DNA of 64,000 nt, taken from Ignavibacteria bacterium RIFOXYC2_FULL_35_21 (GTDB taxonomy: Bacteria > Bacteroidota > Ignavibacteria > Kapaibacteriales > UBA2268). Positions 43,447 to 53,880 of the stretch are shown in pieces. A model generated the notes under the pieces. That model was not told the origin of the DNA, made no database searches, and saw only the letters and a program-made list of their open reading frames with translations. A program made the translations under genes and the position numbers. Location of the stretch: positions 20,183-84,182 of the forward strand of contig MHAY01000002.1 of assembly GCA_001804705.1 (NCBI GenBank). Reading direction: 5' to 3'. Numbering within the stretch: position 1 is the first letter of the stretch; every line of letters begins with the position of its first letter.

Positions 43447-46400
43447 TTGAAAAATTTATTTTCATTATTCGTTTCAATAATAATAATATCAACGTCAGTA
43501 AATTTATTTTCGCTGACTACAAATAAAATAGGAAATCCCCCTGAATCCCCCTTTAATAAAGGGGGAAATTCAAGAACAATTTCAGATTGTCTCAGGCAAA
43601 TTGATAATAAAGACAAGGAAGGGAGGCATCTTTACTATTCTGATAAAATTTATATCAAACTTAAAAAAGATGCTAAAGCTTTTTTAAAAACTTCGGATGA
43701 ACTGCAAGGAACTGTTAACTACAGATTTGGTATTAGCAGTATTGATGAAAAACTCCTGAAGTATGGTGTAAAAACTAATAAGACATTCAAACAAAGAAAA
43801 GAGTTACTTCAAAAAAATAAAGACCATATTCAATCTACAAAGCAGGAATTACCTGACCTTTCGAGAATCTATACATTAGTATTGTCAGGAGTAACTCCTG
43901 ACAGGGATGGGTGGAATAAAATCAGAAAAGTTTTGAAGGAGTTTGCTGATGACCCGAATATCGAGTATGCAGAACCTGTTCCTATCAGGTATTTACTTGA
44001 AATACCGAACGATTCACTTTACAGCCGGCAGCAGCATTTACCTCAAATTAAAGCTGATTCGGCTTGGGATGTGTTTAAAGGAGAAGATGGAACTAAGGAA
44101 ATAATAATTGGTATTAGCGATACAGGTGTCGAATGGGACCATCCTGATTTAATGCGAAATCTGAAACAAAATTTAGGTGAAGATGCAGACGGTGACGGGC
44201 ATGTGATAGAGTATAGTGAAAACGACAGTGCATGGGTGTTGGACCCGGGTGATACAAACCATATTGATGATGACGGTAACGGATACGTTGATGACTTTAT
44301 CGGCTGGGACTTCCTTACGGATTGGACAAGCAAGGGAGAAGGGAATGATCCATGGGATTACAACAGCCACGGAACTCATGTATCAGGAATTGCAGCCGGT
44401 GTTACAAATAATGATTCTGGAATTGCATCAATAAGTTACAATGTGAAATTTTTACCTACATCACATTCATCACAAAGTTATAATAATATATATAAAGGAT
44501 ATGAAGGCATTGTTTATCTTGCAGAAAACGGTGCAGATGTGATTAATTGCAGTTGGGGCGGTGGTGGTTATTCTGCCGCAGAAGCGGAGTCAATTGCTTA
44601 TGCAACAGGATTAGGTGCCATACTTGTCATTGCTGCAGGAAATGATAATAGCGATGAGCATTTCTATCCTGCATATTATCCCAATGTAATAAGCGTAGCC
44701 TCGGTTGGCGTTAACGACAGAAAAGCAAATTATTCAAATTATGGAATTGGTGTTGATATTGCAGCACCGGGAGGTGATTATGGTAACGGTGGTGGTATTT
44801 TAAGTACCTTATTGAATCACAGTTACGGAAGCTACCAGGGTACATCAATGGCAAGTCCTGTGGCGGCAGGGTGTATGGGATTTCTTAAGGCATTTCATCC
44901 TGATTGGTCAATTGCACAACTTGAAACACAATTTTTTGGTACCGCCGATAATATTGATTCGATGAATGCTAATTATATAAATAAACTTGGTGCAGGAAGG
45001 GTAAATCCGTATAGGTCACTGATTGAAACCAATCCTTCGATTCCAAAAAAATTAAGATTAGAACTTTACAGGGTGGTAACTAATGATTCCCTATCTGATA
45101 ATGACGGAGCTTTGGAACCCGGAGATACTGTAAATATAGGATTTGTAATTAGAAATTATACTCATTTGTTAACTTCTAATTCAGTCAATTTTACACTTGA
45201 GTCTCTCGACCCGGATATTGAAGTAATTAAAAATTCATATACAGGAAGTGTTAATCCGGATGGATACTCTGAGATTCCACCAGTATTTGAGGTTAAAATT
45301 TCAGAATCAGCAGAAGCAAGGTTCGCAAAACTAAGATTGAAAACTGCCTCCGATAATGAAGAAATTGTTTACGGAAGCTCCATGGATTTTGAAATTCCTA
45401 TTTCAACCGGTGGTGTTCTTGTGTGGGAAGGGATACCAATGCGGGGATTCAGTGGTTCATTTATCAGGGATTTTCTTAAAGAACAGGGAGTAAAAGTAAC
45501 TTATGGTAATGTATTTCCGACAACATTATTTGGTTATGATGCGGTTTTTCTTTCATTCGGAAGTATAGGCTCTACCGAAACCGGAGCTTCAATGGGGCTT
45601 ACCAGCTTCGATGACTGGATGGCAGATGTAGTAAAGAATTATTTATTAGATGGCGGCAAAGTTTATATTGAAGGTACTGAGATTTTTGGGTGGGACCAGA
45701 GAAATAATTCTGAATTACTTGGTTTATTCGGAATAAAAAGCGGTGATGACGGTGAAAACTATGTAATACTTGATACATTGGAGGGTAATTCATCTGCACT
45801 AACAATTAATATGGAATTTATAGGGTCACATGCTTCCATGTTCCGTTCGATTGATACAGTCATCCCTGATGATAATGGATATAGTTCTTTTTACCAGCCC
45901 GGATACGGAACAGTTTCAGTTCAAAACATCGGTTTTTATAACCAGAAAACATTTTACAGTGCCTATCCGATTGCGGAATTGAATGACCATGCACAGCCAA
46001 GTACAAGGTATGAGCTTGTTTCACGCATTATGAATTTCTTAGGTATTCCGATAGATTATACAGTTCCTTATTTTACAGCTCAGCCAATTACTGGACATGC
46101 TCCAATGGAAATCAGTTTTCAGGATAAATCTTTAACTACCAAACCGATTGATAGCTGGTATTGGGATTTTGGCGATAATTCGGGTAATTCAAACGAAAAA
46201 AATCCGGATTGGACTTATGTTAATCCCGGTACTTATGATGCAAAAATGACGATTACAAGAAACATTAAAAATTATGATACAACGAAAAGTGTATATATAT
46301 TTGATGGGGAAAGCGCCCTCGACTTTAATGGAAGTAGCGGCTATGCACAGGTTCAACCAAATACACCTATTAATTTTTTCAATAAGCTTACAATCGAAGC

Positions 46401-48315
46401 GTGGATAAAGCCTCGAAGCGGCGGCAGGGGCTATTTCGGCAGAATAGCCGACAAAACTAATTTCATGTTTTACATTGCCGGTGACAGATCAATTCGTTTT
46501 ACATTTACTAATGACAGCAATAAAACATCAAATGTATTTACAGATAGATTTAAATTGAATTTTAATGTTTGGCAGCATGTAGCTGTTACTTATGATGGCG
46601 ATAGTATTGTGAAATTCTATGTAAATGGAAAAAATATTAACGATACATTATTCATTACTCAAAATCAACCCAGAGGATTAATAAAAAGAACTACTAATAA
46701 TCTGCTTATTTTCGGGAATAACTCTAATTATAACAGGCCATTCGATGGTGCAATTGATGAAATCAGAATGTGGAGTGTAGAGAGGACCCAACAGGAATTG
46801 ATTAAGAATATGAATACGATTCTTAATGGAGATGAGTTTGGCCTTGCAGGATATTGGCGGTTTCAGGAGGGGAAAGGTTCAGAAACAGAAGATGAAACTC
46901 AATATAATGATATTGCATCTGTTTACTCAGATTGGCGGCAGGGATGGCATAGTGGTTATATTAAATCACAGCCTGTGAGTCAGTTATTATGCCAAGGGCA
47001 GGATGCATCATTTTCAATTAATGCCGTTGGCGGAGAAAAATCATTAACGTATAAATGGTATAAGGACGAGCAGCCTTTAACAGGTGATAGCAGGGTAGTC
47101 GGTGTTGATTCAACAACTCTTGTGGTGAATAACATCATAAAAAGCGATGAAGGAAACTATTTTGTTGTAATCACCGCTATTCCGGGTAATATAAAAACAT
47201 CATCGGATACTGTAGAGTTAAAAGCTAAGGTTAATGTAACTTTACAGCGAGAAGAACCTTTAAGAGAAATAAAAGTTGATGATAGGGGAGAAATGCTTCT
47301 TTCTGTAGATGCAACAGGTGAGGCACCTATTTTTTATAAATGGTATAAAAATGATGTCCTGATACCGGGAGCCGATAATTCTTCATTCAGGAAATTTCCT
47401 TTTATAAAACAAGATGAAGGACGTTATTACTGTATGGTTTCAAACCAGTGTAATAATGTGGTTTCGGACACTTTTAATGTTAAACTTAATGCCGTATCAA
47501 TTGACACACAACCTTTGGAGCAATCGGTTTGCGAAGAACAAGATGCAACCTTTACAATATTAGTTTACGATGCAGGTAAGACATTATCATATCAATGGTA
47601 TAAAGATAATCAGCTTTTAGTCAATGGGAGCAGAATTTCAGGGATTGATTCATCAACGCTTCGAATAAATAATACTATCGAACAGGACGAAGGAAATTAT
47701 TATGCACAAATAATTGCTAATCCCGGCAATATTCAGTTGAATACAAATTCTGCATTCTTAACGATCAAGGACAGTGCATCTGTCCAAAAGAGCGATTCGA
47801 TAAGAAAAGTCAGGGTGAAAGAAGGTGATGATTTGCTATTAACTGTAGAAGCTTCAGGGGAGGCTCCGCTAAGTTATAAGTGGTATAAAGATGATGTAGA
47901 GATTCCCGGCACAGATAGTTCAACTTACTTCAAATCACCTTTCGCAAAAGAGGATGCAGGATTATACTATTGCATAGTATCGAACGAGTGCAATTCGGCT
48001 ATTTCAGATACTTTCGATGTTATTCTAAGATATACATCTGTTGATGATTATACAACTGATGAATTAATAAAAGTATATCCGAATCCTTTTAACGGTATAA
48101 CTACATTTTATCTGAGCCTTCAAATACCGCATTCAGTAAGGCTTGTGATTAATGATATTCTTGGCAATGAAGTATCGGAAATAACCAATCAGAAGTTAGA
48201 AGCGGGATTACATAGATACAATTTCAATGCTGAAGGATTATCGAGCGGAATATATTTTTATTCTCTGAATATTGAGGGTAAGAAAATAACAGGATTGTTG
48301 AATTTAATTAAATAA
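43447..48315 (+). CDS. Giant T9SS-secreted subtilisin-like (S8) peptidase with PKD, LamG and four Ig-like domains
   Basis: TTG start preceded by agggag. Signal peptide. S8 triad contexts SDTGVEWDHPDL, HGTHVSGIAAG and GTSMASPVAAG. PKD (WYWDFGDNSGNS...GTYDAKMTIT). LamG (LTIEAWIKP...FDGAIDEIRMWS). Four repeats of (Y[KQ]WYKD...DEGNY). C-terminal KVYPNPFNGITTFYLSL...GIYFYSLNIEGK sorting domain. Confidence 0.88.
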   Translation: MKNLFSLFVSIIIISTSVNLFSLTTNKIGNPPESPFNKGGNSRTISDCLRQIDNKDKEGRHLYYSDKIYIKLKKDAKAFLKTSDELQGTVNYRFGISSIDEKLLKYGVKTNKTFKQRKELLQKNKDHIQSTKQELPDLSRIYTLVLSGVTPDRDGWNKIRKVLKEFADDPNIEYAEPVPIRYLLEIPNDSLYSRQQHLPQIKADSAWDVFKGEDGTKEIIIGISDTGVEWDHPDLMRNLKQNLGEDADGDGHVIEYSENDSAWVLDPGDTNHIDDDGNGYVDDFIGWDFLTDWTSKGEGNDPWDYNSHGTHVSGIAAGVTNNDSGIASISYNVKFLPTSHSSQSYNNIYKGYEGIVYLAENGADVINCSWGGGGYSAAEAESIAYATGLGAILVIAAGNDNSDEHFYPAYYPNVISVASVGVNDRKANYSNYGIGVDIAAPGGDYGNGGGILSTLLNHSYGSYQGTSMASPVAAGCMGFLKAFHPDWSIAQLETQFFGTADNIDSMNANYINKLGAGRVNPYRSLIETNPSIPKKLRLELYRVVTNDSLSDNDGALEPGDTVNIGFVIRNYTHLLTSNSVNFTLESLDPDIEVIKNSYTGSVNPDGYSEIPPVFEVKISESAEARFAKLRLKTASDNEEIVYGSSMDFEIPISTGGVLVWEGIPMRGFSGSFIRDFLKEQGVKVTYGNVFPTTLFGYDAVFLSFGSIGSTETGASMGLTSFDDWMADVVKNYLLDGGKVYIEGTEIFGWDQRNNSELLGLFGIKSGDDGENYVILDTLEGNSSALTINMEFIGSHASMFRSIDTVIPDDNGYSSFYQPGYGTVSVQNIGFYNQKTFYSAYPIAELNDHAQPSTRYELVSRIMNFLGIPIDYTVPYFTAQPITGHAPMEISFQDKSLTTKPIDSWYWDFGDNSGNSNEKNPDWTYVNPGTYDAKMTITRNIKNYDTTKSVYIFDGESALDFNGSSGYAQVQPNTPINFFNKLTIEAWIKPRSGGRGYFGRIADKTNFMFYIAGDRSIRFTFTNDSNKTSNVFTDRFKLNFNVWQHVAVTYDGDSIVKFYVNGKNINDTLFITQNQPRGLIKRTTNNLLIFGNNSNYNRPFDGAIDEIRMWSVERTQQELIKNMNTILNGDEFGLAGYWRFQEGKGSETEDETQYNDIASVYSDWRQGWHSGYIKSQPVSQLLCQGQDASFSINAVGGEKSLTYKWYKDEQPLTGDSRVVGVDSTTLVVNNIIKSDEGNYFVVITAIPGNIKTSSDTVELKAKVNVTLQREEPLREIKVDDRGEMLLSVDATGEAPIFYKWYKNDVLIPGADNSSFRKFPFIKQDEGRYYCMVSNQCNNVVSDTFNVKLNAVSIDTQPLEQSVCEEQDATFTILVYDAGKTLSYQWYKDNQLLVNGSRISGIDSSTLRINNTIEQDEGNYYAQIIANPGNIQLNTNSAFLTIKDSASVQKSDSIRKVRVKEGDDLLLTVEASGEAPLSYKWYKDDVEIPGTDSSTYFKSPFAKEDAGLYYCIVSNECNSAISDTFDVILRYTSVDDYTTDELIKVYPNPFNGITTFYLSLQIPHSVRLVINDILGNEVSEITNQKLEAGLHRYNFNAEGLSSGIYFYSLNIEGKKITGLLNLIK
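43533..43570. repeat. Family A REP inside the S8 peptidase CDS
   Basis: aaatccccctgaatccccctttaataaagggggaaatt is the reverse-orientation equivalent of the intergenic copy at 25021-25058. It is translated as GNPPESPFNKGGN, directly after the signal peptide. Confidence 0.85.
43883..43903. repeat. Family B palindrome inside the S8 peptidase CDS
   Basis: tgtcaggagtaactcctgaca, translated as LSGVTPDR in the pro-region. Confidence 0.85.
48070..48312 (+). other. T9SS C-terminal sorting domain of the S8 peptidase
   Basis: The last ~80 aa begin KVYPNPF and end ...GIYFYSLNIEGKKITGLLNLIK. Confidence 0.8.
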
Positions 48316-48328
48316 AAAATTATTAAAG

Positions 48329-48353
48329 AACCTGCAATGTGAAATCGCAGGTT
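48329..48353. terminator. Hairpin between convergent genes (candidate bidirectional terminator)
   Basis: aacctgc / gcaggtt stem with an 11-nt loop, A-rich on the left and T-rich on the right (tattttatttatt). Confidence 0.5.
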
Positions 48354-48361
48354 TATTTTAT

Positions 48362-50470
48362 TTATTGTTTGAATAATTCCTCCACTCCCTTTGTTCTGCC
48401 TGTGTTGACTATGAGTATTTTTGAGGATTTGGGGATTGAGTCTTTCATTTGGAGGAGCAATGCGAGGCCAGCCATGCCCGAAGGCTCGAATTTTATTTTT
48501 TGTGATGATGCGATTTCAATTGCACGGTCAACATTACTTTCATCAACATTGTAGATGCCTGTCATTTGCCCAACGCAGTCGTATTCTTCTTTCAATTCAA
48601 CTATGTATTTTTTGAATGAATCGAGTGAAGGAAGAAAACTTGAGAATAATTTATCAAGCCGTGAATTAGGCTTGTTCGTAGAAGCTCCTATGAAACTGCA
48701 TTTCTTCAAAGTATTGACATCGCTGAAAAAGCGAGGGTCGTGCTTTGCAACGAATGAATTGAAGTATTCGATTTTCACTATGTTGAGGACATTGATAAAC
48801 AAATCACCGGTGCCGAAAGGAATGAAACAATAATCAGGCTTTTCACGTAGGATTTCGTAGCTCATCCAGTCGTAGTAATTGTCGTGTGTAGGGTCGAGAA
48901 CTTCGCGGTAAGTTATGTCAATTCCGTTTTGATTGCTGGTAATTTCTTTAATTTCATCTGATGTCAACAGTTTTTCGGACAAGTCGCATTGATATAGTTC
49001 GCATCCGATTTGTGTGATTGATTCTTTAATACCGTTATTCAGCCTGTTGTCAACGAGTACTTTTAATCGAGTCGGAATTTTGAAAAGATTAAATAGATGC
49101 TGGATAGCAATAGCCGCACTTCCGGAGGAGATGATGGACATCTGGGGAAGAGAGTCCTGGTTTTTGTACTTCAGGCTTTCAATCAATGACTTGTATTTAA
49201 TAACAACTTCCCAAGCCATCCTGTCTTTGTGTGTGCCTGTCGGATTTGTGCTTTCATCTTTGAGCCACATATTTGAAAAGCCGGGTATATGGATTTTGTA
49301 AGTTTCGGAAGCAGGAAACTTTGGCGTATAAAACGGCTCAGGCGGAAACTCCGGTTTATTTGGATTATTTGTTGAAGGAATTTTTATTCTCTTGTAAGTT
49401 AATTCAAGTGAAGAGCTGATTATATGCGGCTTTGTCAGCTTTGGCAATAAGGCTGTTAGCTCTTCATATTTGTTTATTTTATTGAGTAAAATTTCATAGT
49501 ATATTTTATGCTGATTTTCACGAATGATATCGAGAAGGTCATGAAGCTTTTCGATGATTTTCTTGATTTCATCAAACTCTGTACGCAGCTTTTTATAAAA
49601 TTCTTTTTCTTTTTTGTCGCTGATTAGCAGCTTATGATTTTTTTCGAGTTTTTCTATTCGCAATTTCCAATACTTAAGCAATTCCGACCTGCCGAGAGAA
49701 TCGAATAAATTAAAATCACCTTCGTAAACATCTTTGAGAAGGATGTGGAATGTGTGGCTGAGATATAAGTCCGGGTGGAACTTTGTCAGGTCAATAAGTT
49801 CCCTGAGGCAGTTCTCATTTTGAAGGAAATCACGGCTGATAATAATAAATACCTGCTCGTTTGAATCGAGGCCATTGTACAGTTCAAGCAAAGAGCCTTT
49901 GCTGAAAGTTTGTGAATTCCTGATTTCGGTTTCGACAATTATATCAAATTTATCTTTCAGGTAAGCACCAATTTTTTCGGATTCGCTCATATTATTGAGT
50001 GTCGAAGAAATAATTACTTTTAATTTTTGAGAGGGTGCTTTATAAACAGAAAAATCTTCTAATAATTTTTTTTCAAATCTTTTCTGGTCAAATCTTTTTC
50101 TTCCATGAGAAAAAAGATAGCAAATATCAATGTTGTATTCCTGAAATTGCAGGTTCTTGGCTTCTTTGTTAGTGTATAATAGGTTTCTGAAGAAAGTATT
50201 ACCCGGAACAATTTCGTAGTCGGGTAAATCCTGAATTTTAATATCGGTGTTCTGCTGTTCTTCAATTTCTTTAAGTTTATTAATAATTATTTCCCGAAGC
50301 TCTTCGTAGTTGGGTAGGTGGGCATTGAATTTTTTTGTACCGCCTTCGGATTCATATTTCTCACGGATTTTTTGCCTGAGCTTGTCCAGTTCTTCTTTGT
50401 CAACTTTAATCCAGCCGCTTTTAAGTATAATTTCCTGTTTCATTATTTCATTATTATTGATTTTACTCAA
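48362..50470 (-). CDS. Multidomain protein: unknown N-terminal domain + TIR-like domain + coiled coil + fold-type-II PLP-dependent enzyme domain
   Basis: See the domain features and finding below. TIR-like order KVIISS / DIIVETEI / GSLLELYNGL / VFIIISRDFLQNENCLRELIDL. PLP-enzyme motifs WLKDESTNPTGTHKDRMA, SSGSAAIAIQ, IPFGTGDLF. Confidence 0.6.
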   Translation of the reverse strand: MSKINNNEIMKQEIILKSGWIKVDKEELDKLRQKIREKYESEGGTKKFNAHLPNYEELREIIINKLKEIEEQQNTDIKIQDLPDYEIVPGNTFFRNLLYTNKEAKNLQFQEYNIDICYLFSHGRKRFDQKRFEKKLLEDFSVYKAPSQKLKVIISSTLNNMSESEKIGAYLKDKFDIIVETEIRNSQTFSKGSLLELYNGLDSNEQVFIIISRDFLQNENCLRELIDLTKFHPDLYLSHTFHILLKDVYEGDFNLFDSLGRSELLKYWKLRIEKLEKNHKLLISDKKEKEFYKKLRTEFDEIKKIIEKLHDLLDIIRENQHKIYYEILLNKINKYEELTALLPKLTKPHIISSSLELTYKRIKIPSTNNPNKPEFPPEPFYTPKFPASETYKIHIPGFSNMWLKDESTNPTGTHKDRMAWEVVIKYKSLIESLKYKNQDSLPQMSIISSGSAAIAIQHLFNLFKIPTRLKVLVDNRLNNGIKESITQIGCELYQCDLSEKLLTSDEIKEITSNQNGIDITYREVLDPTHDNYYDWMSYEILREKPDYCFIPFGTGDLFINVLNIVKIEYFNSFVAKHDPRFFSDVNTLKKCSFIGASTNKPNSRLDKLFSSFLPSLDSFKKYIVELKEEYDCVGQMTGIYNVDESNVDRAIEIASSQKIKFEPSGMAGLALLLQMKDSIPKSSKILIVNTGRTKGVEELFKQ
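48365..49318 (-). other. PALP (tryptophan-synthase-beta-like) PLP-dependent domain (residues ~385-702)
   Basis: NPTGTHKDR places a Lys (K415) where the family has its PLP lysine. Gly-rich phosphate-binding loop FGTGDL. Confidence 0.65.
49685..50023 (-). other. TIR-like domain (residues ~150-262)
   Basis: Motif order and spacing match bacterial TIR domains. The candidate catalytic Glu is E196. Confidence 0.5.
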
Positions 50471-50505
50471 TGTTAAAATACGGATAAGTCAAGAAATAGT
50501 TTTTT

Positions 50506-50540
50506 TTCTCCCTATATTAAAGGGAGATAAAAGAGGGATT
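50506..50540. repeat. Degenerate family A REP
   Basis: ttctccctatattaaagggagataaaagagggatt. Confidence 0.7.
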
Positions 50541-50563: not shown

Positions 50564-50600
50564 CAAAAAAGGATTAACCTTTAGAATTAATCCTTTTTTA
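50564..50600. terminator. Bidirectional-type intrinsic terminator ending the cytochrome operon
   Basis: aaaaaa-aggattaa-(9 nt)-ttaatcct-tttttt. On the minus strand the hairpin is followed by ttttttgtttt. Confidence 0.7.
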
Positions 50601-50615
50601 AAAATTTGTGTTCAA

Positions 50616-50972
50616 CTAATAAACAACCGTAGATAAATTATGCAGCCAGTTACACAAAATATCAAGGTCTTCCTTCTTACCTTTGAAAGCTACTGGATGT
50701 TTTTTATTAATAAGCTTAACCTTTTTTTTCAGGTAATCTTTAATAATTTCTACTTCTAATGAATCACCAACGGTTGACAAATCAGTTAGCGATTTTTTAG
50801 TTGTATCACTACATTCAATAACCTGAGACTTGATGGAATGGCATCTATTGCACTTCATTTCCAAAAAGATAATACTGCCGCTTCTGACAGGATAATCCTG
50901 ACTGATAAGCAAAGAACTGAAAACAAATATTAAAATAAGTGCAACAAAAATATTTAATTTTAAAAATTTCAT
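50616..50972 (-). CDS. Small secreted monoheme c-type cytochrome
   Basis: Signal peptide and a single CNRCH (CxxCH) motif. Confidence 0.6.
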   Translation of the reverse strand: MKFLKLNIFVALILIFVFSSLLISQDYPVRSGSIIFLEMKCNRCHSIKSQVIECSDTTKKSLTDLSTVGDSLEVEIIKDYLKKKVKLINKKHPVAFKGKKEDLDILCNWLHNLSTVVY

Positions 50973-51040
50973 TTATAGATATTTTACCTATTTATATTAC
51001 ACCTACCCCAGCTCTTCCTCATAGGAAGGGATAATTAATT

Positions 51041-51075
51041 ATTCATTCGTAATTCGTAATTCATAATTCGTAATT
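51041..51075. repeat. 7-nt-period microsatellite (aattcgt/aattcat)n abutting a stop codon
   Basis: attcattcgtaattcgtaattcataattcgtaatt. Confidence 0.9.
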
Positions 51076-51445
51076 AATTATTCGGTGCTCCTTTATTAAT
51101 CCAAGCAATAATTTGGTCGGCATCACAGCTACTCAACAGGCTCCTCATTGAACCTCCCGGAATTATAGCATTTTGTAATTTGCCATTATCAACATTTGTT
51201 TTGACATTAGCATAACCATTCAAATCTACACCTCCGGCACTACCATGGCAACTAACACATTTGGATGCTAAAATATTTTGAATAGTAACCGTAAAAGTTA
51301 CATTTACTGTATCACAGCCACCGGGAGGAGGAGGTGCAACATATATTTCATCCTGTTCGCATGATATTAAGAAAGATGATATTGAAATTATTGCAACGAT
51401 TGCAAACAGGCTAAAAATTCTATAATTTTTTATTTTATTTCTCAT
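51074..51445 (-). CDS. Monoheme c-type cytochrome lipoprotein (PSCyt1-like domain)
   Basis: Lipobox FLISC and a Pro-rich linker. IQNILASKCVSCHGSAGGVDL...GGSMR...IIAWINKGA resembles the planctomycete-type cytochrome c domain. Confidence 0.6.
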   Translation of the reverse strand: MRNKIKNYRIFSLFAIVAIISISSFLISCEQDEIYVAPPPPGGCDTVNVTFTVTIQNILASKCVSCHGSAGGVDLNGYANVKTNVDNGKLQNAIIPGGSMRSLLSSCDADQIIAWINKGAPNN

Positions 51446-51495
51446 AATTTAACCTTTCGTTTGATTTGTCTTTATTTTCATAAATAAGAAAAATT

Positions 51496-52677
51496 TTAAT
51501 AAAATATATGTAATTGGAATGTCCATTCCGCCGAATAACCCGGCACCTGTTCGCTGTTGTAAATCCTGTATTCCGGAAGCAAATCAATATATGGAAGAAG
51601 ATTTACATGAGCGCCGAATACAAATTGATTAGTATAGAAAGGATGATTTTCAACTTTATATTTTGTTACACCTCTTTCTGCACGGACAAACGGCAAAACA
51701 GCATCTGTAACAGCATAAGTTACTTCAGCAAGAAAATTAAGCGTTAACCTGCTATCCTTTTTCTCAGAACGCATATATTCTGTCATCAAAGCGAGCTGTT
51801 CGGTTAATCCAATATTGAAAAATACGCTTGAAATATAATAATCATCGTTCAATAAATAAGTTCCACCAAAGAAAGTTGTAACTCCATCAATAATATTCGG
51901 AGGTGTAATAAATGCTCTTAAAACAGTTGATACGGAACCTGTGTCAACAACAGGGATAGTAGTATTTGCTTTACTTTTTGTTGTTAACTTAATCATATTT
52001 TTTGTATCAAACATACCAACCGATAGTCCAACCCAATCGAGAGCTTCGTAATCAATTTGAGCTCCGAATTCTGCATAATCACCAGGAATAAGCGGCCTGG
52101 TTTGTCCCTTCCAGATGCCTGTGACTTCTCTGATTAGCATGGTATGGTCATCATACTTAGTTCCGATAGTGGGCTGGAAGTAGCCAACACGCAGTGACGG
52201 CAACTTCTCGGATGGTTTGATATACATGCTTGCAGAATATGGATTCTGCCCTACAAATCTTTTATCGGAAGCAATGTCATAGGCAATGTTGTAAAATCCT
52301 TCGAATCCAAGCCAGTTAAATGGCTGTAAAATTATGAAAGGAGATAGTTGCATTACCATCATATCTCTACCGATAGGTGGTCCCCATCGTGCAGACTGAA
52401 GGCGGAAATCAACTCCAAATGTTGCAACCTCGTTGAAAACTGTATTTGTTTCCATTGCATCGTATAATCCCTGCAAACCAATTGTTCCCGGATTTATAAG
52501 GCTAATATCTTTTCTTGCCATCCAACCGGGCTGAGTGCGGGCTCCACCGCCCTGAGTGTTATAATGACAGCCTATGCACTTTGTACCAAAATTCTGAAGA
52601 ATAGAATACTGAGGCCTTGCATTTGCAAAAGCAATAGTTAACATTAATAAAATTGTAATTAGAAAATATTTTTTCAT
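51496..52677 (-). CDS. Cyc2-like fused monoheme cytochrome-porin (outer-membrane beta-barrel with an N-terminal CxxCH)
   Basis: Signal peptide ...AFANA. The protein's only two Cys residues form CIGCH at residues 34-38, preceded by RPQYSILQNFGTK. The remaining ~350 aa alternate hydrophobic and polar residues and end WTFQLHIFY (an OMP beta-signal-like terminus). Confidence 0.6.
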   Translation of the reverse strand: MKKYFLITILLMLTIAFANARPQYSILQNFGTKCIGCHYNTQGGGARTQPGWMARKDISLINPGTIGLQGLYDAMETNTVFNEVATFGVDFRLQSARWGPPIGRDMMVMQLSPFIILQPFNWLGFEGFYNIAYDIASDKRFVGQNPYSASMYIKPSEKLPSLRVGYFQPTIGTKYDDHTMLIREVTGIWKGQTRPLIPGDYAEFGAQIDYEALDWVGLSVGMFDTKNMIKLTTKSKANTTIPVVDTGSVSTVLRAFITPPNIIDGVTTFFGGTYLLNDDYYISSVFFNIGLTEQLALMTEYMRSEKKDSRLTLNFLAEVTYAVTDAVLPFVRAERGVTKYKVENHPFYTNQFVFGAHVNLLPYIDLLPEYRIYNSEQVPGYSAEWTFQLHIFY

Positions 52678-52779
52678 ATAATACCTTTGAAAATTGATTT
52701 ATAATTCTTTTTAAAATTAAAAAATAATTATGCAGAAAAAAAGCTCCAGCAATAATATGTTGAAGCTTTTTTATAAAAA

Positions 52780-52807
52780 GATTGTCAGGGTCTAAGCCCT
52801 GACAATC
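52780..52807 (-). terminator. Strong hairpin between the hexaheme gene and the cyc2-like gene (terminator/attenuator)
   Basis: gattgtcaggg-tctaag-ccctgacaatc (11-bp perfect stem) with a T-run on the minus strand. A second, weaker hairpin (agcttc...ggagct + T7) follows at about 52741-52772. Confidence 0.6.
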
Positions 52808-52821
52808 TTTTTTTAAGAAAA

Positions 52822-53880
52822 TTATTTGCCTAAATATTGCAAGCCGTTATTAACTAATGCTTTGATGTATGCCGGATTATGAACACCTTTACTGCGGTCT
52901 TTTGCTACGTATAAGTAATTTAAGACTACTTCGACATCAGTCGGATTGGGGAAAGCAACTTTTGCTTGGTCAGCCCTAAAATATTCACCTAATACGTTAT
53001 AACCCTCTGCTGAAACAGCAGCAGTTGTATCTAACCAACCTTTGTCAATCAATGCCTGTCTGTAGATTACAAGTTTGGGTCCAATATCATTTTGAATTGC
53101 TGCCTTACTTATTGTAGTAGAGTCGTGGCAGTTTCTACATTCGACAATCTTGGCAAGATTTGGTGGTGTCATCAAGAATGTATGTCCGCCAGCTGCAGGA
53201 TTTGATGGGTCAGAACCCATGTGGCAGGAAACGCATCCTTTCGGCAATGAAGCATGCTGGTTGATTGTTGGGTATGTATCATCACCTGTTATTTGATATG
53301 GTCCATTCATAGTAACGACATTAGCTACAACGCCATAATGTGGACCAAACCTTGAATATGTTGTTCCGCTGACTCTGCTGATTGTGTCAGGAACTGTACG
53401 TGTAAAAGGACGAGCCTGATGGCATTTCGAACATAAATTGCCATCTTTCTGGTCAATCATTGCACCAGTATGACGAAGAGCAAAACCTGCTGTGATTCTT
53501 CTTGCGAAATCAGTTGTGTCGAAATTCTTGTGAATAGTATGACATGCTTTGCAATTGATTTTTGAGGATGCTTTTGATACAGGGTCATTTTGTCCCAATG
53601 TTGCAGCTTCTGCAAAACCGTCGCCAGTATGACAGCCGCCACAAGCTAATCTGCCGGCTTCTTCTTCATAAATAACACCGGTGTTGTGCCTAGATAGGTG
53701 ATACTGATTAAATTTCAGATTCACATCATCAGCATCAGCACCATGACAAACAGCACATACAATTTCTGCAGATGGCCCTGCAGGCCCTTCGGGTCCTGTA
53801 CAAGAAATAAACATACTTGTTATTCCGAGGACTGTTAAAAGTCCGAATAACTTCCAAATTAGACTTTCAAACTTTTTCAA
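52822..53880 (-). CDS. Hexaheme c-type cytochrome lipoprotein
   Basis: Lipobox MFISC followed by a GPEGPAGPS linker. Six CxxCH motifs: CAVCH, CGGCH, CKACH, CSKCH, CVSCH, CRNCH. Confidence 0.8.
   Translation of the reverse strand: MKKFESLIWKLFGLLTVLGITSMFISCTGPEGPAGPSAEIVCAVCHGADADDVNLKFNQYHLSRHNTGVIYEEEAGRLACGGCHTGDGFAEAATLGQNDPVSKASSKINCKACHTIHKNFDTTDFARRITAGFALRHTGAMIDQKDGNLCSKCHQARPFTRTVPDTISRVSGTTYSRFGPHYGVVANVVTMNGPYQITGDDTYPTINQHASLPKGCVSCHMGSDPSNPAAGGHTFLMTPPNLAKIVECRNCHDSTTISKAAIQNDIGPKLVIYRQALIDKGWLDTTAAVSAEGYNVLGEYFRADQAKVAFPNPTDVEVVLNYLYVAKDRSKGVHNPAYIKALVNNGLQYLGK

Follow-up and report, generated by a model that had tools for sequence, protein, structure and literature searches.

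TIR domains are known as immune NADases, as generators of signals or as scaffolds for protein interactions, and fold-type II enzymes that depend on pyridoxal 5'-phosphate (PLP) often possess fused allosteric domains, such as the CBS pair of cystathionine beta-synthase, the ACT-like domains of IlvA and the S-adenosylmethionine-responsive N-terminus of plant threonine synthase. We know of no TIR domain that has been described as an accessory domain of a fold-type II PLP enzyme. Here we report on a gene that encodes such a combination, located in a 64,000-nucleotide stretch of DNA from Ignavibacteria bacterium RIFOXYC2_FULL_35_21 (contig MHAY01000002.1, positions 20,183 to 84,182 of the forward strand; hereafter the window). 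Its product joins a novel N-domain and a TIR-type domain to a PLP enzyme domain of the PALP family. Our searches of the accessible literature yielded no description of a TIR-PALP fusion or of any other union of TIR with a PLP/PALP domain, and the architecture appears to be undescribed, as a preliminary description made from the DNA sequence alone had surmised. We tentatively read the window protein as a cytoplasmic, monocistronically encoded multi-domain PLP enzyme whose TIR-derived module serves in regulation or assembly, and not as an anti-phage immune module.

Relation to described TIR proteins and PLP enzymes

The described proteins most similar to the N-terminal part of the window protein are bacterial TIR_2 proteins with helical or coiled-coil extensions (AbTir, BtpA/TcpB and TIR-TPR proteins), with which it shares the flavodoxin-like TIR fold including the BB-loop Gly, the betaC-alphaC motif S-x-x-Y-L-x-S-E-x-C-x-x-E(L), and an adjoining helical element with Y-x-x-Y-W. 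In NADase TIR domains, the catalytic Glu belongs to helix alphaC and follows the W of WxxxE by four residues (W204/E208 in AbTir, W638/E642 in SARM1); the E208A variant of AbTir is inactive, the E208D variant is impaired, and cyclic ADP-ribose (ADPR) products require an aromatic residue at position -4 from the Glu (10.1101/2022.05.07.491051). Unlike these TIR_2 proteins, the window protein falls below Pfam significance, has a non-aromatic residue (N220) at position -4, and belongs to a family in which the catalytic Glu is relaxed and other pocket residues (E219, N159/N160, R184) are fixed; moreover, its fusion partner is a PLP enzyme and not a TPR, NLR, STING or SAVED module. With the Thoeris systems (TIR protein ThsB plus effector ThsA, including the type II variant with its His-ADPR signal) it shares a TIR-family domain, and it was this variant that underlay the earlier idea of an amino acid-ADPR product. 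In contrast to Thoeris, the gene has no ThsA-like partner (SIR2/SLOG or Macro), no conserved neighbour of any kind and no PADLOC match, and we saw no defence island around it.

Cystathionine beta-synthase, IlvA and plant threonine synthase resemble the window protein in carrying a PALP core and an accessory ligand-binding or assembly domain in one chain, with the core being the more conserved part. What sets the window protein apart from them is that its accessory domain is TIR-derived, is N-terminal and occurs together with a novel N-domain. It has the same fold as threonine synthase, DcsD, CysM and serine racemase/threonine deaminase, together with their Lys residue, Gly-rich phosphate loop, 'EPSG' and C-terminal 'TG', but it differs from them in its low identity (11-18%), in the replacement of the Asn of the S-G-N loop by Ser or Gly, and in a unique proline-rich N-terminal strap. 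The gene and the parts of the encoded protein are as follows.

48362-50470, minus strand: whole open reading frame (ORF), 702 codons counted from a TTG, with the stop codon at 48362-48364
50441-50443, minus strand: probable true start codon ATG (M10, 'MKQEI...'), based on homologue starts and upstream alignment
50051-50443, minus strand: N-domain, residues 10-140, a novel alpha/beta domain in the AlphaFold2 (AF2) model, with conserved GW, GG, FNxHLxNY, PGxTF, FQxxN and CYL
49685-50029, minus strand: core of the TIR_2-type domain, residues 148-262, based on Foldseek, TIR_2 matches of relatives and the family profile
49799-49801, minus strand: codon of E224 (GAA), the canonical position of the TIR catalytic Glu in 'NCLREL' by motif register
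49436-49684, minus strand: helical hairpin, residues 263-345, either an insertion into the TIR domain or an appendage to it, with the motif LLKYWKLRIEKLE (AF2, profile coverage)
49301-49408, minus strand: proline-rich strap IPSxNxPxKPEFPPxPFYxPKFPAS, residues 355-390, specific to this PALP subfamily
48386-49300, minus strand: fold-type II PLP (PALP) catalytic domain, residues 391-695, threonine-synthase-like, based on Pfam, weak NCBIfam matches and Foldseek
49226-49228, minus strand: codon of K415 (AAA), the predicted PLP Schiff-base lysine in NPTGTHKDR, based on conservation and pairwise alignment with PDB sequences

The PLP domain and its different N-terminal partners

PALP is the sole Pfam family matched by the window protein (PF00291, residues 395-691, E = 4.6e-18, 66 bits versus a cut-off of 35, profile positions 13-295 of 295). 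K415 is invariant in all 39 + 27 + 9 aligned sequences and aligns with the family Lys of CysK/CysM; S449-G450, G553-T554-G555-D556 and E662-P663-S664-G665 are, like K415, invariant in 39 homologues. When the full-length AF2 model (mean predicted local distance difference test, pLDDT, 80.5) was compared with the PDB by Foldseek, we retrieved 376 chains at E <= 1e-3, the best at about 1e-10, in agreement with a two-domain fold-type II structure. DcsD, ThrC, TdcB, serine racemase, CysM and CBS were the top matches, with TM-scores normalised to the target of 0.5-0.63 and within the low range of identity given above. The Pfam match, the invariance of K415 and the structural matches bear out the fold-type II marks that had been read from the sequence beforehand, Lys415 among them. 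Judged by its cofactor motifs, the domain looks catalytically intact.

None of the NCBIfam equivalog cut-offs for threonine synthase or cysteine synthase was reached, with scores of about 25 bits or less; the best match was to the threonine synthase model PRK06381 (24.8 bits versus a cut-off of 266), and cysM scored 13 versus 394. In CysK, ThrC and IlvA, the substrate/O3' loop S/T-x-G-N has a canonical Asn. The corresponding loop of the window protein reads S448-S449-G450-S451-A-A; at position 451 the Kapabacteria clade has Ser, and the Bacteroidales clade has Gly. We regard the missing Asn as an atypical variation and as no ground for excluding the domain from the fold-type II enzymes; the domain represents a distant, uncharacterised fold-type II subfamily.

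About 70 full-length homologues, with identities of 48-95%, are present in metagenome-assembled genomes (MAGs) of Kapabacteria, Ignavibacteriae-like bacteria and Bacteroidales. A much larger set of proteins from Cytophagales represents a short, TIR-less form of about 509 residues that has only the strap and the PALP domain in common with the long form (about 58% identity). We rejected kinship between the N-terminal domains of the two forms, since hhalign detected no homology between them (probability 2%). The short form (L006-L009, L041-L092) possesses its own conserved N-terminal helical domain with the motifs GTGxWSF, GPSEDLLRRAFNLKSPPGAT and DWN, for which we found no match in Pfam. Together with two proteins in which the TIR domain and the hairpin alone precede the PALP domain (P0141, P0142), the PALP core is thus found behind three kinds of N-terminus, that is, the N-domain plus TIR plus hairpin, TIR plus hairpin, and the unrelated helical domain of the short form. 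Since it stays constant across these three, the core can be regarded as the constant functional unit of the family. A word-indexed search with the PALP core returned short-form proteins only and no further architectures.

The degree of conservation differs along the protein. The strap is its most conserved segment (74-79% identity within clades, 64% between clades) and is invariant or near-invariant in the long, the short and the TIR_2-PALP forms; the values for the PALP domain and the strap span 73-79% within and 62-64% between clades. Corresponding values for the N-domain and the TIR domain are 57-65% and 40%, and to judge from these alignments the N-terminal module is under clear purifying selection.

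The TIR-type domain and its pocket

The window protein itself has no Pfam TIR match at E <= 1. In the AF2 model, the strands and helices of this region follow the order beta-alpha-beta-alpha-beta-alpha-beta, with strands at residues 151-157, 178-184, 205-211 and 240-244 (pLDDT about 83-93). When residues 10-372 were modelled separately (pLDDT 81) and compared with the PDB by Foldseek, the top matches were TIR domains (RPPT, RPS4, RPV1, MAL, Roq1, RUN1, L6 and BtpA) at probabilities of 0.95-1.0 and weak E-values of 3e-3 to 2e-2, with SIS domains also among the matches. TIR_2 (PF13676) is matched by the N-terminal regions of 14 of 22 relatives (best E = 4e-5), and the distant PALP relatives P0140, P0141 and P0142 score 31.5, 50.3 and 47.7 bits against a gathering score of 28. 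Since the window protein lies below TIR_2 significance and some of its relatives lie above it, membership rests on transitive homology.

For a wider view of this module, we searched 1.8 billion representative sequences exhaustively with a hidden Markov model built from the N-terminal part of the family; this search replaced a word-indexed search with the same alignment that had returned two proteins. The profile found 1014 proteins, most of them over profile positions ~135-325 only, which correspond to the TIR core plus the hairpin. TIR_2 proteins were reached at E = 1e-10 to 1e-15, and all eight of the matches without a PALP domain that were scanned with Pfam contained TIR_2, among them TIR-TPR and double-TIR proteins. 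The Foldseek matches, the TIR_2 matches of relatives and the retrieval of TIR_2 proteins by the family profile together support the TIR identity of residues about 148-262 that was originally proposed. AF2 places the helices of the adjacent hairpin at residues 258-283 and 289-318. Because the profile matches cover the TIR core and the hairpin together, this region is a hairpin common to a TIR_2 subfamily; the helices expected for the K/E-rich segment at ~270-345 are therefore real (residues 258-340), and the separate coiled-coil domain that had been seen in them is not.

E196, initially put forward as the catalytic Glu, sits in helix alphaB and not at the canonical position, and we have rejected it as a candidate; an acidic residue is present there in 36 of 38 sequences. 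Alignment of the motif S-x-x-Y-L-x-S-E-x-C-x-x-E with 144 TIR_2 relatives places the canonical Glu at E224, in the 'C-x-x-E-L' of helix alphaC. Among the TIR-PALP family members, this position is Glu in 42 of 79 (the others have G in 14 cases, D in 9, H in 6, N in 4, S in 2 and Q in 1), compared with 134 of the 144 outgroup TIR_2 relatives. Across the family the catalytic Glu is, on the evidence of the alignment, dispensable. Its fate differs between the clades: the Kapabacteria, to which the window protein belongs, have 15 E, 4 D and 1 N, and the Bacteroidales clade has 8 G, 3 E, 2 N, 2 D, 2 H and 1 S.

Other parts of the pocket are held far more strictly. E219 is fixed in 77/79 family members versus 58/144 outgroup relatives, and S155, T157, N159, N160, R184, D214, Q217 and N218 are nearly invariant in the family. 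The relaxation of E224 in the presence of a fixed E219 indicates a use of the TIR pocket that has changed and is still constrained, unlike that of an NADase. Because E224 survives in the window protein and in most of the Kapabacteria clade, residual hydrolysis of NAD+ to ADPR by these proteins is possible. Cyclic ADPR products are unlikely, since position -4 (N220 in the window protein) is never aromatic in the family, where N, E, S, D, T, Q and other residues occur.

The N-domain and relatives that lack the PLP domain

We found no match for the N-domain (AF2 pLDDT mostly 70-93) in Pfam or in fold searches of the PDB (Foldseek) and BFVD, in agreement with the initial impression that the first ~145 residues resemble nothing recognisable. 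The N-domain, the TIR domain and the hairpin also occur together in PALP-less proteins of ~340-370 residues (P0123-P0136); a metagenome scan for this PALP-less module found nothing. Two of these proteins, P0125 (L097:1945-7791) and P0132, are about 40% identical to each other and both adjoin Bub-type ubiquitination-like operons with genes for a ThiF E1, Multi_ubiq, DUF6791-ThiF and BubE, which is to say that Bub adjacency holds for both of the PALP-less contexts in which several neighbouring genes are visible. Bub operons are suspected stress or antiphage systems (PMC11601596). The L097 locus also contains HTH_3, NlpC/P60 and phage integrase genes, and a third PALP-less relative adjoins a SocA/Panacea gene, which is toxin-antitoxin-like. 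The PALP-less module could belong to Bub operons as an accessory or effector component that has so far been overlooked.

Downstream of the gene for P0142, a TIR_2-PALP protein of 558 residues that lacks the N-domain, the same strand carries a 226-codon ORF, a gene for a separate TIR protein of 208 residues and a gene for a CbiA/AAA_31-GerE protein (L096:2105-6972). From the Bub, integrase, SocA/Panacea and TIR neighbours we conclude that the N-terminal module probably arose in conflict-type systems.

Proposed function

We tentatively favour a PLP enzyme because the strap and the PALP domain are constant and retain intact cofactor motifs, and because the catalytic Glu of the TIR domain is dispensable. 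Since the TIR-less form from Cytophagales keeps the PLP domain, PLP chemistry is independent of a TIR product. In the proposed enzyme, K415 would form the internal aldimine, G553-T554-G555-D556 would hold the phosphate of PLP, the EPSG and NTG motifs would complete the cofactor site, and the family-specific proline-rich strap would pack onto the PLP domain. As the reaction we infer a beta- or gamma-elimination or -replacement, with an amino acid as substrate that may be of the O-phospho- or O-acyl-hydroxy type. The N-terminal module may serve in regulation or assembly, through self-association and/or through the binding of a nucleotide (NAD-related) at the TIR pocket, a putative site that would include S155, T157, N159, N160, R184, D214, Q217, N218 and E219. 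We do not think that the TIR module is an obligatory NADase.

Gene, terminators and genomic surroundings

In every homologue the first Met aligns with M10, and in an alignment of five upstream regions 'ATGAAA' is invariant at this position and the TTG is not conserved; the real product therefore probably comprises ~693 residues and starts from 50443. The ORF is real, monocistronic and conserved, and it is bordered by two hairpins.

48328-48354, both strands: bidirectional intrinsic-terminator hairpin, common to the gene and the convergent S8 protease gene, based on folding energies and T-runs on both sides
50564-50600, minus strand: terminator hairpin of the upstream cytochrome-like gene (50616-50972), based on fold energy and a U-run

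The first hairpin folds with -11.5 and -12.4 kcal/mol on the two strands (z = -3.5 and -4.4 versus shuffled sequence), and the second, which is followed by a U-run on the minus strand, with -14 kcal/mol (z = -3.8). Both are ordinary terminators, and through them the TIR-PALP gene is transcriptionally isolated. The preliminary description had been correct in placing hairpins on both sides of the gene; its further step of regarding the gene as an independently acquired unit finds no support, and we reject a recent acquisition because the GC content of the gene matches that of its neighbours and because relatives with identities as low as 81% preserve the synteny.

A perfect 7-bp inverted repeat (TCTCCCT, 7-nt loop, AGGGAGA) is present at 50507-50527, between the upstream terminator and the start codon. 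We dismissed it as a regulatory element since relatives at 81-94% identity do not conserve it, and it is probably functionless. Within 48000-50500, the orientation of the genes in the window changes from plus (about 22-48 kb) to minus (48-63 kb), and the cumulative GC skew reaches its maximum at about 49.5-50 kb. The coding-strand GC skew of the TIR-PALP gene is -0.096, and that of all 16 other window genes sampled is positive (0.016 to 0.205). Since the median skew of the TIR-PALP family is about 0, the negative value of this gene is partly intrinsic; the pattern may reflect a replication-terminus-like skew switch or an old inversion.

Neighbours of the gene in the window encode AccA, a NUDIX protein, a GT2 protein, an S8 protease secreted by a type IX secretion system (T9SS), multihaem cytochromes, a CBM9 protein and PfkB. 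The secreted protease (43447-48315, plus strand) has 1622 residues and consists of a subtilase S8 domain, PKD, LamG-like and several Ig domains and a T9SS C-terminal sorting domain. On the other side, four genes on the minus strand (50616-53880) encode two small CxxCH proteins, a 393-residue protein and a 352-residue multihaem cytochrome (Cytochrome_C7 / MtrC-like matches). The 393-residue protein has no Pfam match and its sequence resembles that of an outer-membrane beta-barrel; the cluster may be an extracellular electron-transfer module.

A search of PADLOC-DB v2 gave no defence family match for the window protein at E <= 1, and the matches of its neighbours in the window were to generic domains only. 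On inspection, without a formal enrichment test, we found no defence genes next to it, either in the window or in about seven further contexts, distinct from one another, in which full-length homologues occur. Defence-linked neighbourhoods, to which the preliminary description had looked for support, were thus not seen in any of about eight distinct contexts. Long-form relatives at 81-94% identity retain the neighbours found in the window, those of more distant Kapabacteria are unrelated to them and ordinary as well (an oxidoreductase, DPBB and TPR proteins, glycoside hydrolases, a polysaccharide cluster, tryptophanase), and beyond such synteny of close relatives no neighbour is common to the 37 long-form loci. 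None of the contexts examined represents an amino-acid biosynthesis operon. The short form resides in a conserved housekeeping synteny, ileS-lspA-PALP-DUF4230-GAF-mutS2, in Cytophagales MAGs.

In the Bacteroidales clade (L002-L005, L034, L035, L037 and L038; locus coordinates of about 10.1-17.3 kb), the TIR-PALP gene is always convergent with one block of genes, which encode a Peptidase_C1+DUF4384 protein, two MORN-Peptidase_C14 (caspase-like) proteins and a LigT/2H phosphoesterase. This arrangement holds in two upstream contexts. The block could be conflict-system-like, or it could reflect simple synteny, in that a single rearrangement breakpoint could explain the pattern.

Weighing of alternative explanations

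Several observations weigh against a regulated PLP enzyme. A profile search of the PDB sequences found no relative of the family, and the PLP site, as far as its sequence tells, is atypical in that Ser or Gly replaces the usual Asn of the substrate loop. The family is rare, with 355 loci in 185,579 GTDB species representatives, and all of the 80 loci listed belong to Bacteroidota-type MAGs. Gene position varies among the Kapabacteria, a variation that would fit an accessory gene. Bub operons, an integrase gene and a toxin-antitoxin-like gene are found beside relatives of the N-terminal module, and the gene of P0142 is close to another TIR gene. Moreover, of the 20 Kapabacteria clade members, 19 have Glu or Asp at position 224, and TIR catalysis may matter in this lineage.

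A rival explanation, less likely in our view but plausible for the clade of the window protein, is a single-gene stress-response or anti-phage protein of the abortive-infection type. The N-domain or the PALP domain would sense a trigger, the TIR domain would oligomerise and hydrolyse NAD+ via E224, and/or the PLP domain would act as a metabolic effector, for instance through the depletion or conversion of an amino acid. Its clear TIR_2 ancestry, the presence of E224 in the window protein and of an acidic residue in nearly all of its clade, the monocistronic gene with a location that differs between genera, and the sparse taxonomic distribution are all in favour of such a role. The same can be said of the PALP-less module beside Bub operons (in one case with an integrase) and a SocA/Panacea gene, of the proximity of P0142 to a TIR gene and an AAA_31-GerE gene, and of the genes for Peptidase_C1, two MORN-caspases and a 2H phosphoesterase that accompany the gene in the Bacteroidales clade. 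Against this stand the loss of the catalytic Glu in about half of the family, a TIR-less form in a housekeeping context, the lack of PADLOC matches, and the finding that neither the window nor the Kapabacteria and polysaccharide-cluster contexts show defence genes near the long form. In addition, a scan of viral contigs found no family member, synteny is stable with no GC anomaly, and immune sensors or effectors are usually far less conserved than this PLP domain. The NAD-linked or immune function first suggested for this gene is, as an obligatory function, not borne out by these findings.

A TIR-derived domain that serves as an NAD+/ADPR-sensing or NAD+-consuming allosteric switch, and thereby lets cellular NAD status, or a nucleotide made by the TIR domain, control the making or the breakdown of a particular amino-acid-derived metabolite by the PLP domain, is a more specific version of regulation that we regard as improbable.

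Little likelihood attaches to an obligatory chemical coupling as envisaged in the preliminary description, in which the TIR domain would cleave NAD+ (or exchange its base) and the PLP domain would add or modify an amino-acid moiety to yield an amino-acid-nucleotide conjugate or a beta-substituted alanine. At least two architectures (N-domain-TIR-PALP and TIR-PALP) hold TIR and this PALP subfamily in one covalent chain, E224 is kept in the clade of the window protein, and PLP enzymes that catalyse beta-replacement can use heterocyclic N-nucleophiles. However, the same PALP core, 58% identical and with the same active-site motifs, is found in Cytophagales with no TIR domain attached, the catalytic Glu is missing from about half of those members that do have a TIR (mostly Gly in the Bacteroidales clade), the aromatic residue at -4 needed for cyclic ADPR products is missing, and there are no conserved partner genes.

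An ordinary biosynthetic paralogue, that is, a threonine or cysteine synthase with a functionally unimportant N-terminal extension, would agree with the database names ('cysteine synthase', 'PLP-dependent lyase/thiolase'), the weak NCBIfam threonine synthase matches and the ordinary chromosomal contexts, but it is likewise unlikely in view of NCBIfam scores of about 25 bits or less versus equivalog cut-offs of 266 or more, the failure to find a PDB sequence relative even with a profile, the altered Asn loop, the lack of an amino-acid biosynthesis operon in any context, and the clear purifying selection on the N-terminal module, many of whose residues are invariant and whose identity within clades reaches 57-65%.

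Implications

Should the immune explanation or the coupled chemistry be true, the family would provide a new effector chemistry for TIR systems. If the NAD switch were true, it would constitute a new link of TIR signalling chemistry with amino-acid metabolism, and the protein would possibly be a domesticated offshoot of a Bub-associated conflict module. The regulated PLP enzyme that we tentatively favour would be a natural case in which a TIR domain has taken on a new task, in regulation or assembly, outside immunity, and the family defines a subfamily of fold-type II PLP enzymes, specific to Bacteroidota, whose proline-rich strap is unique and whose substrate loop is unusual.

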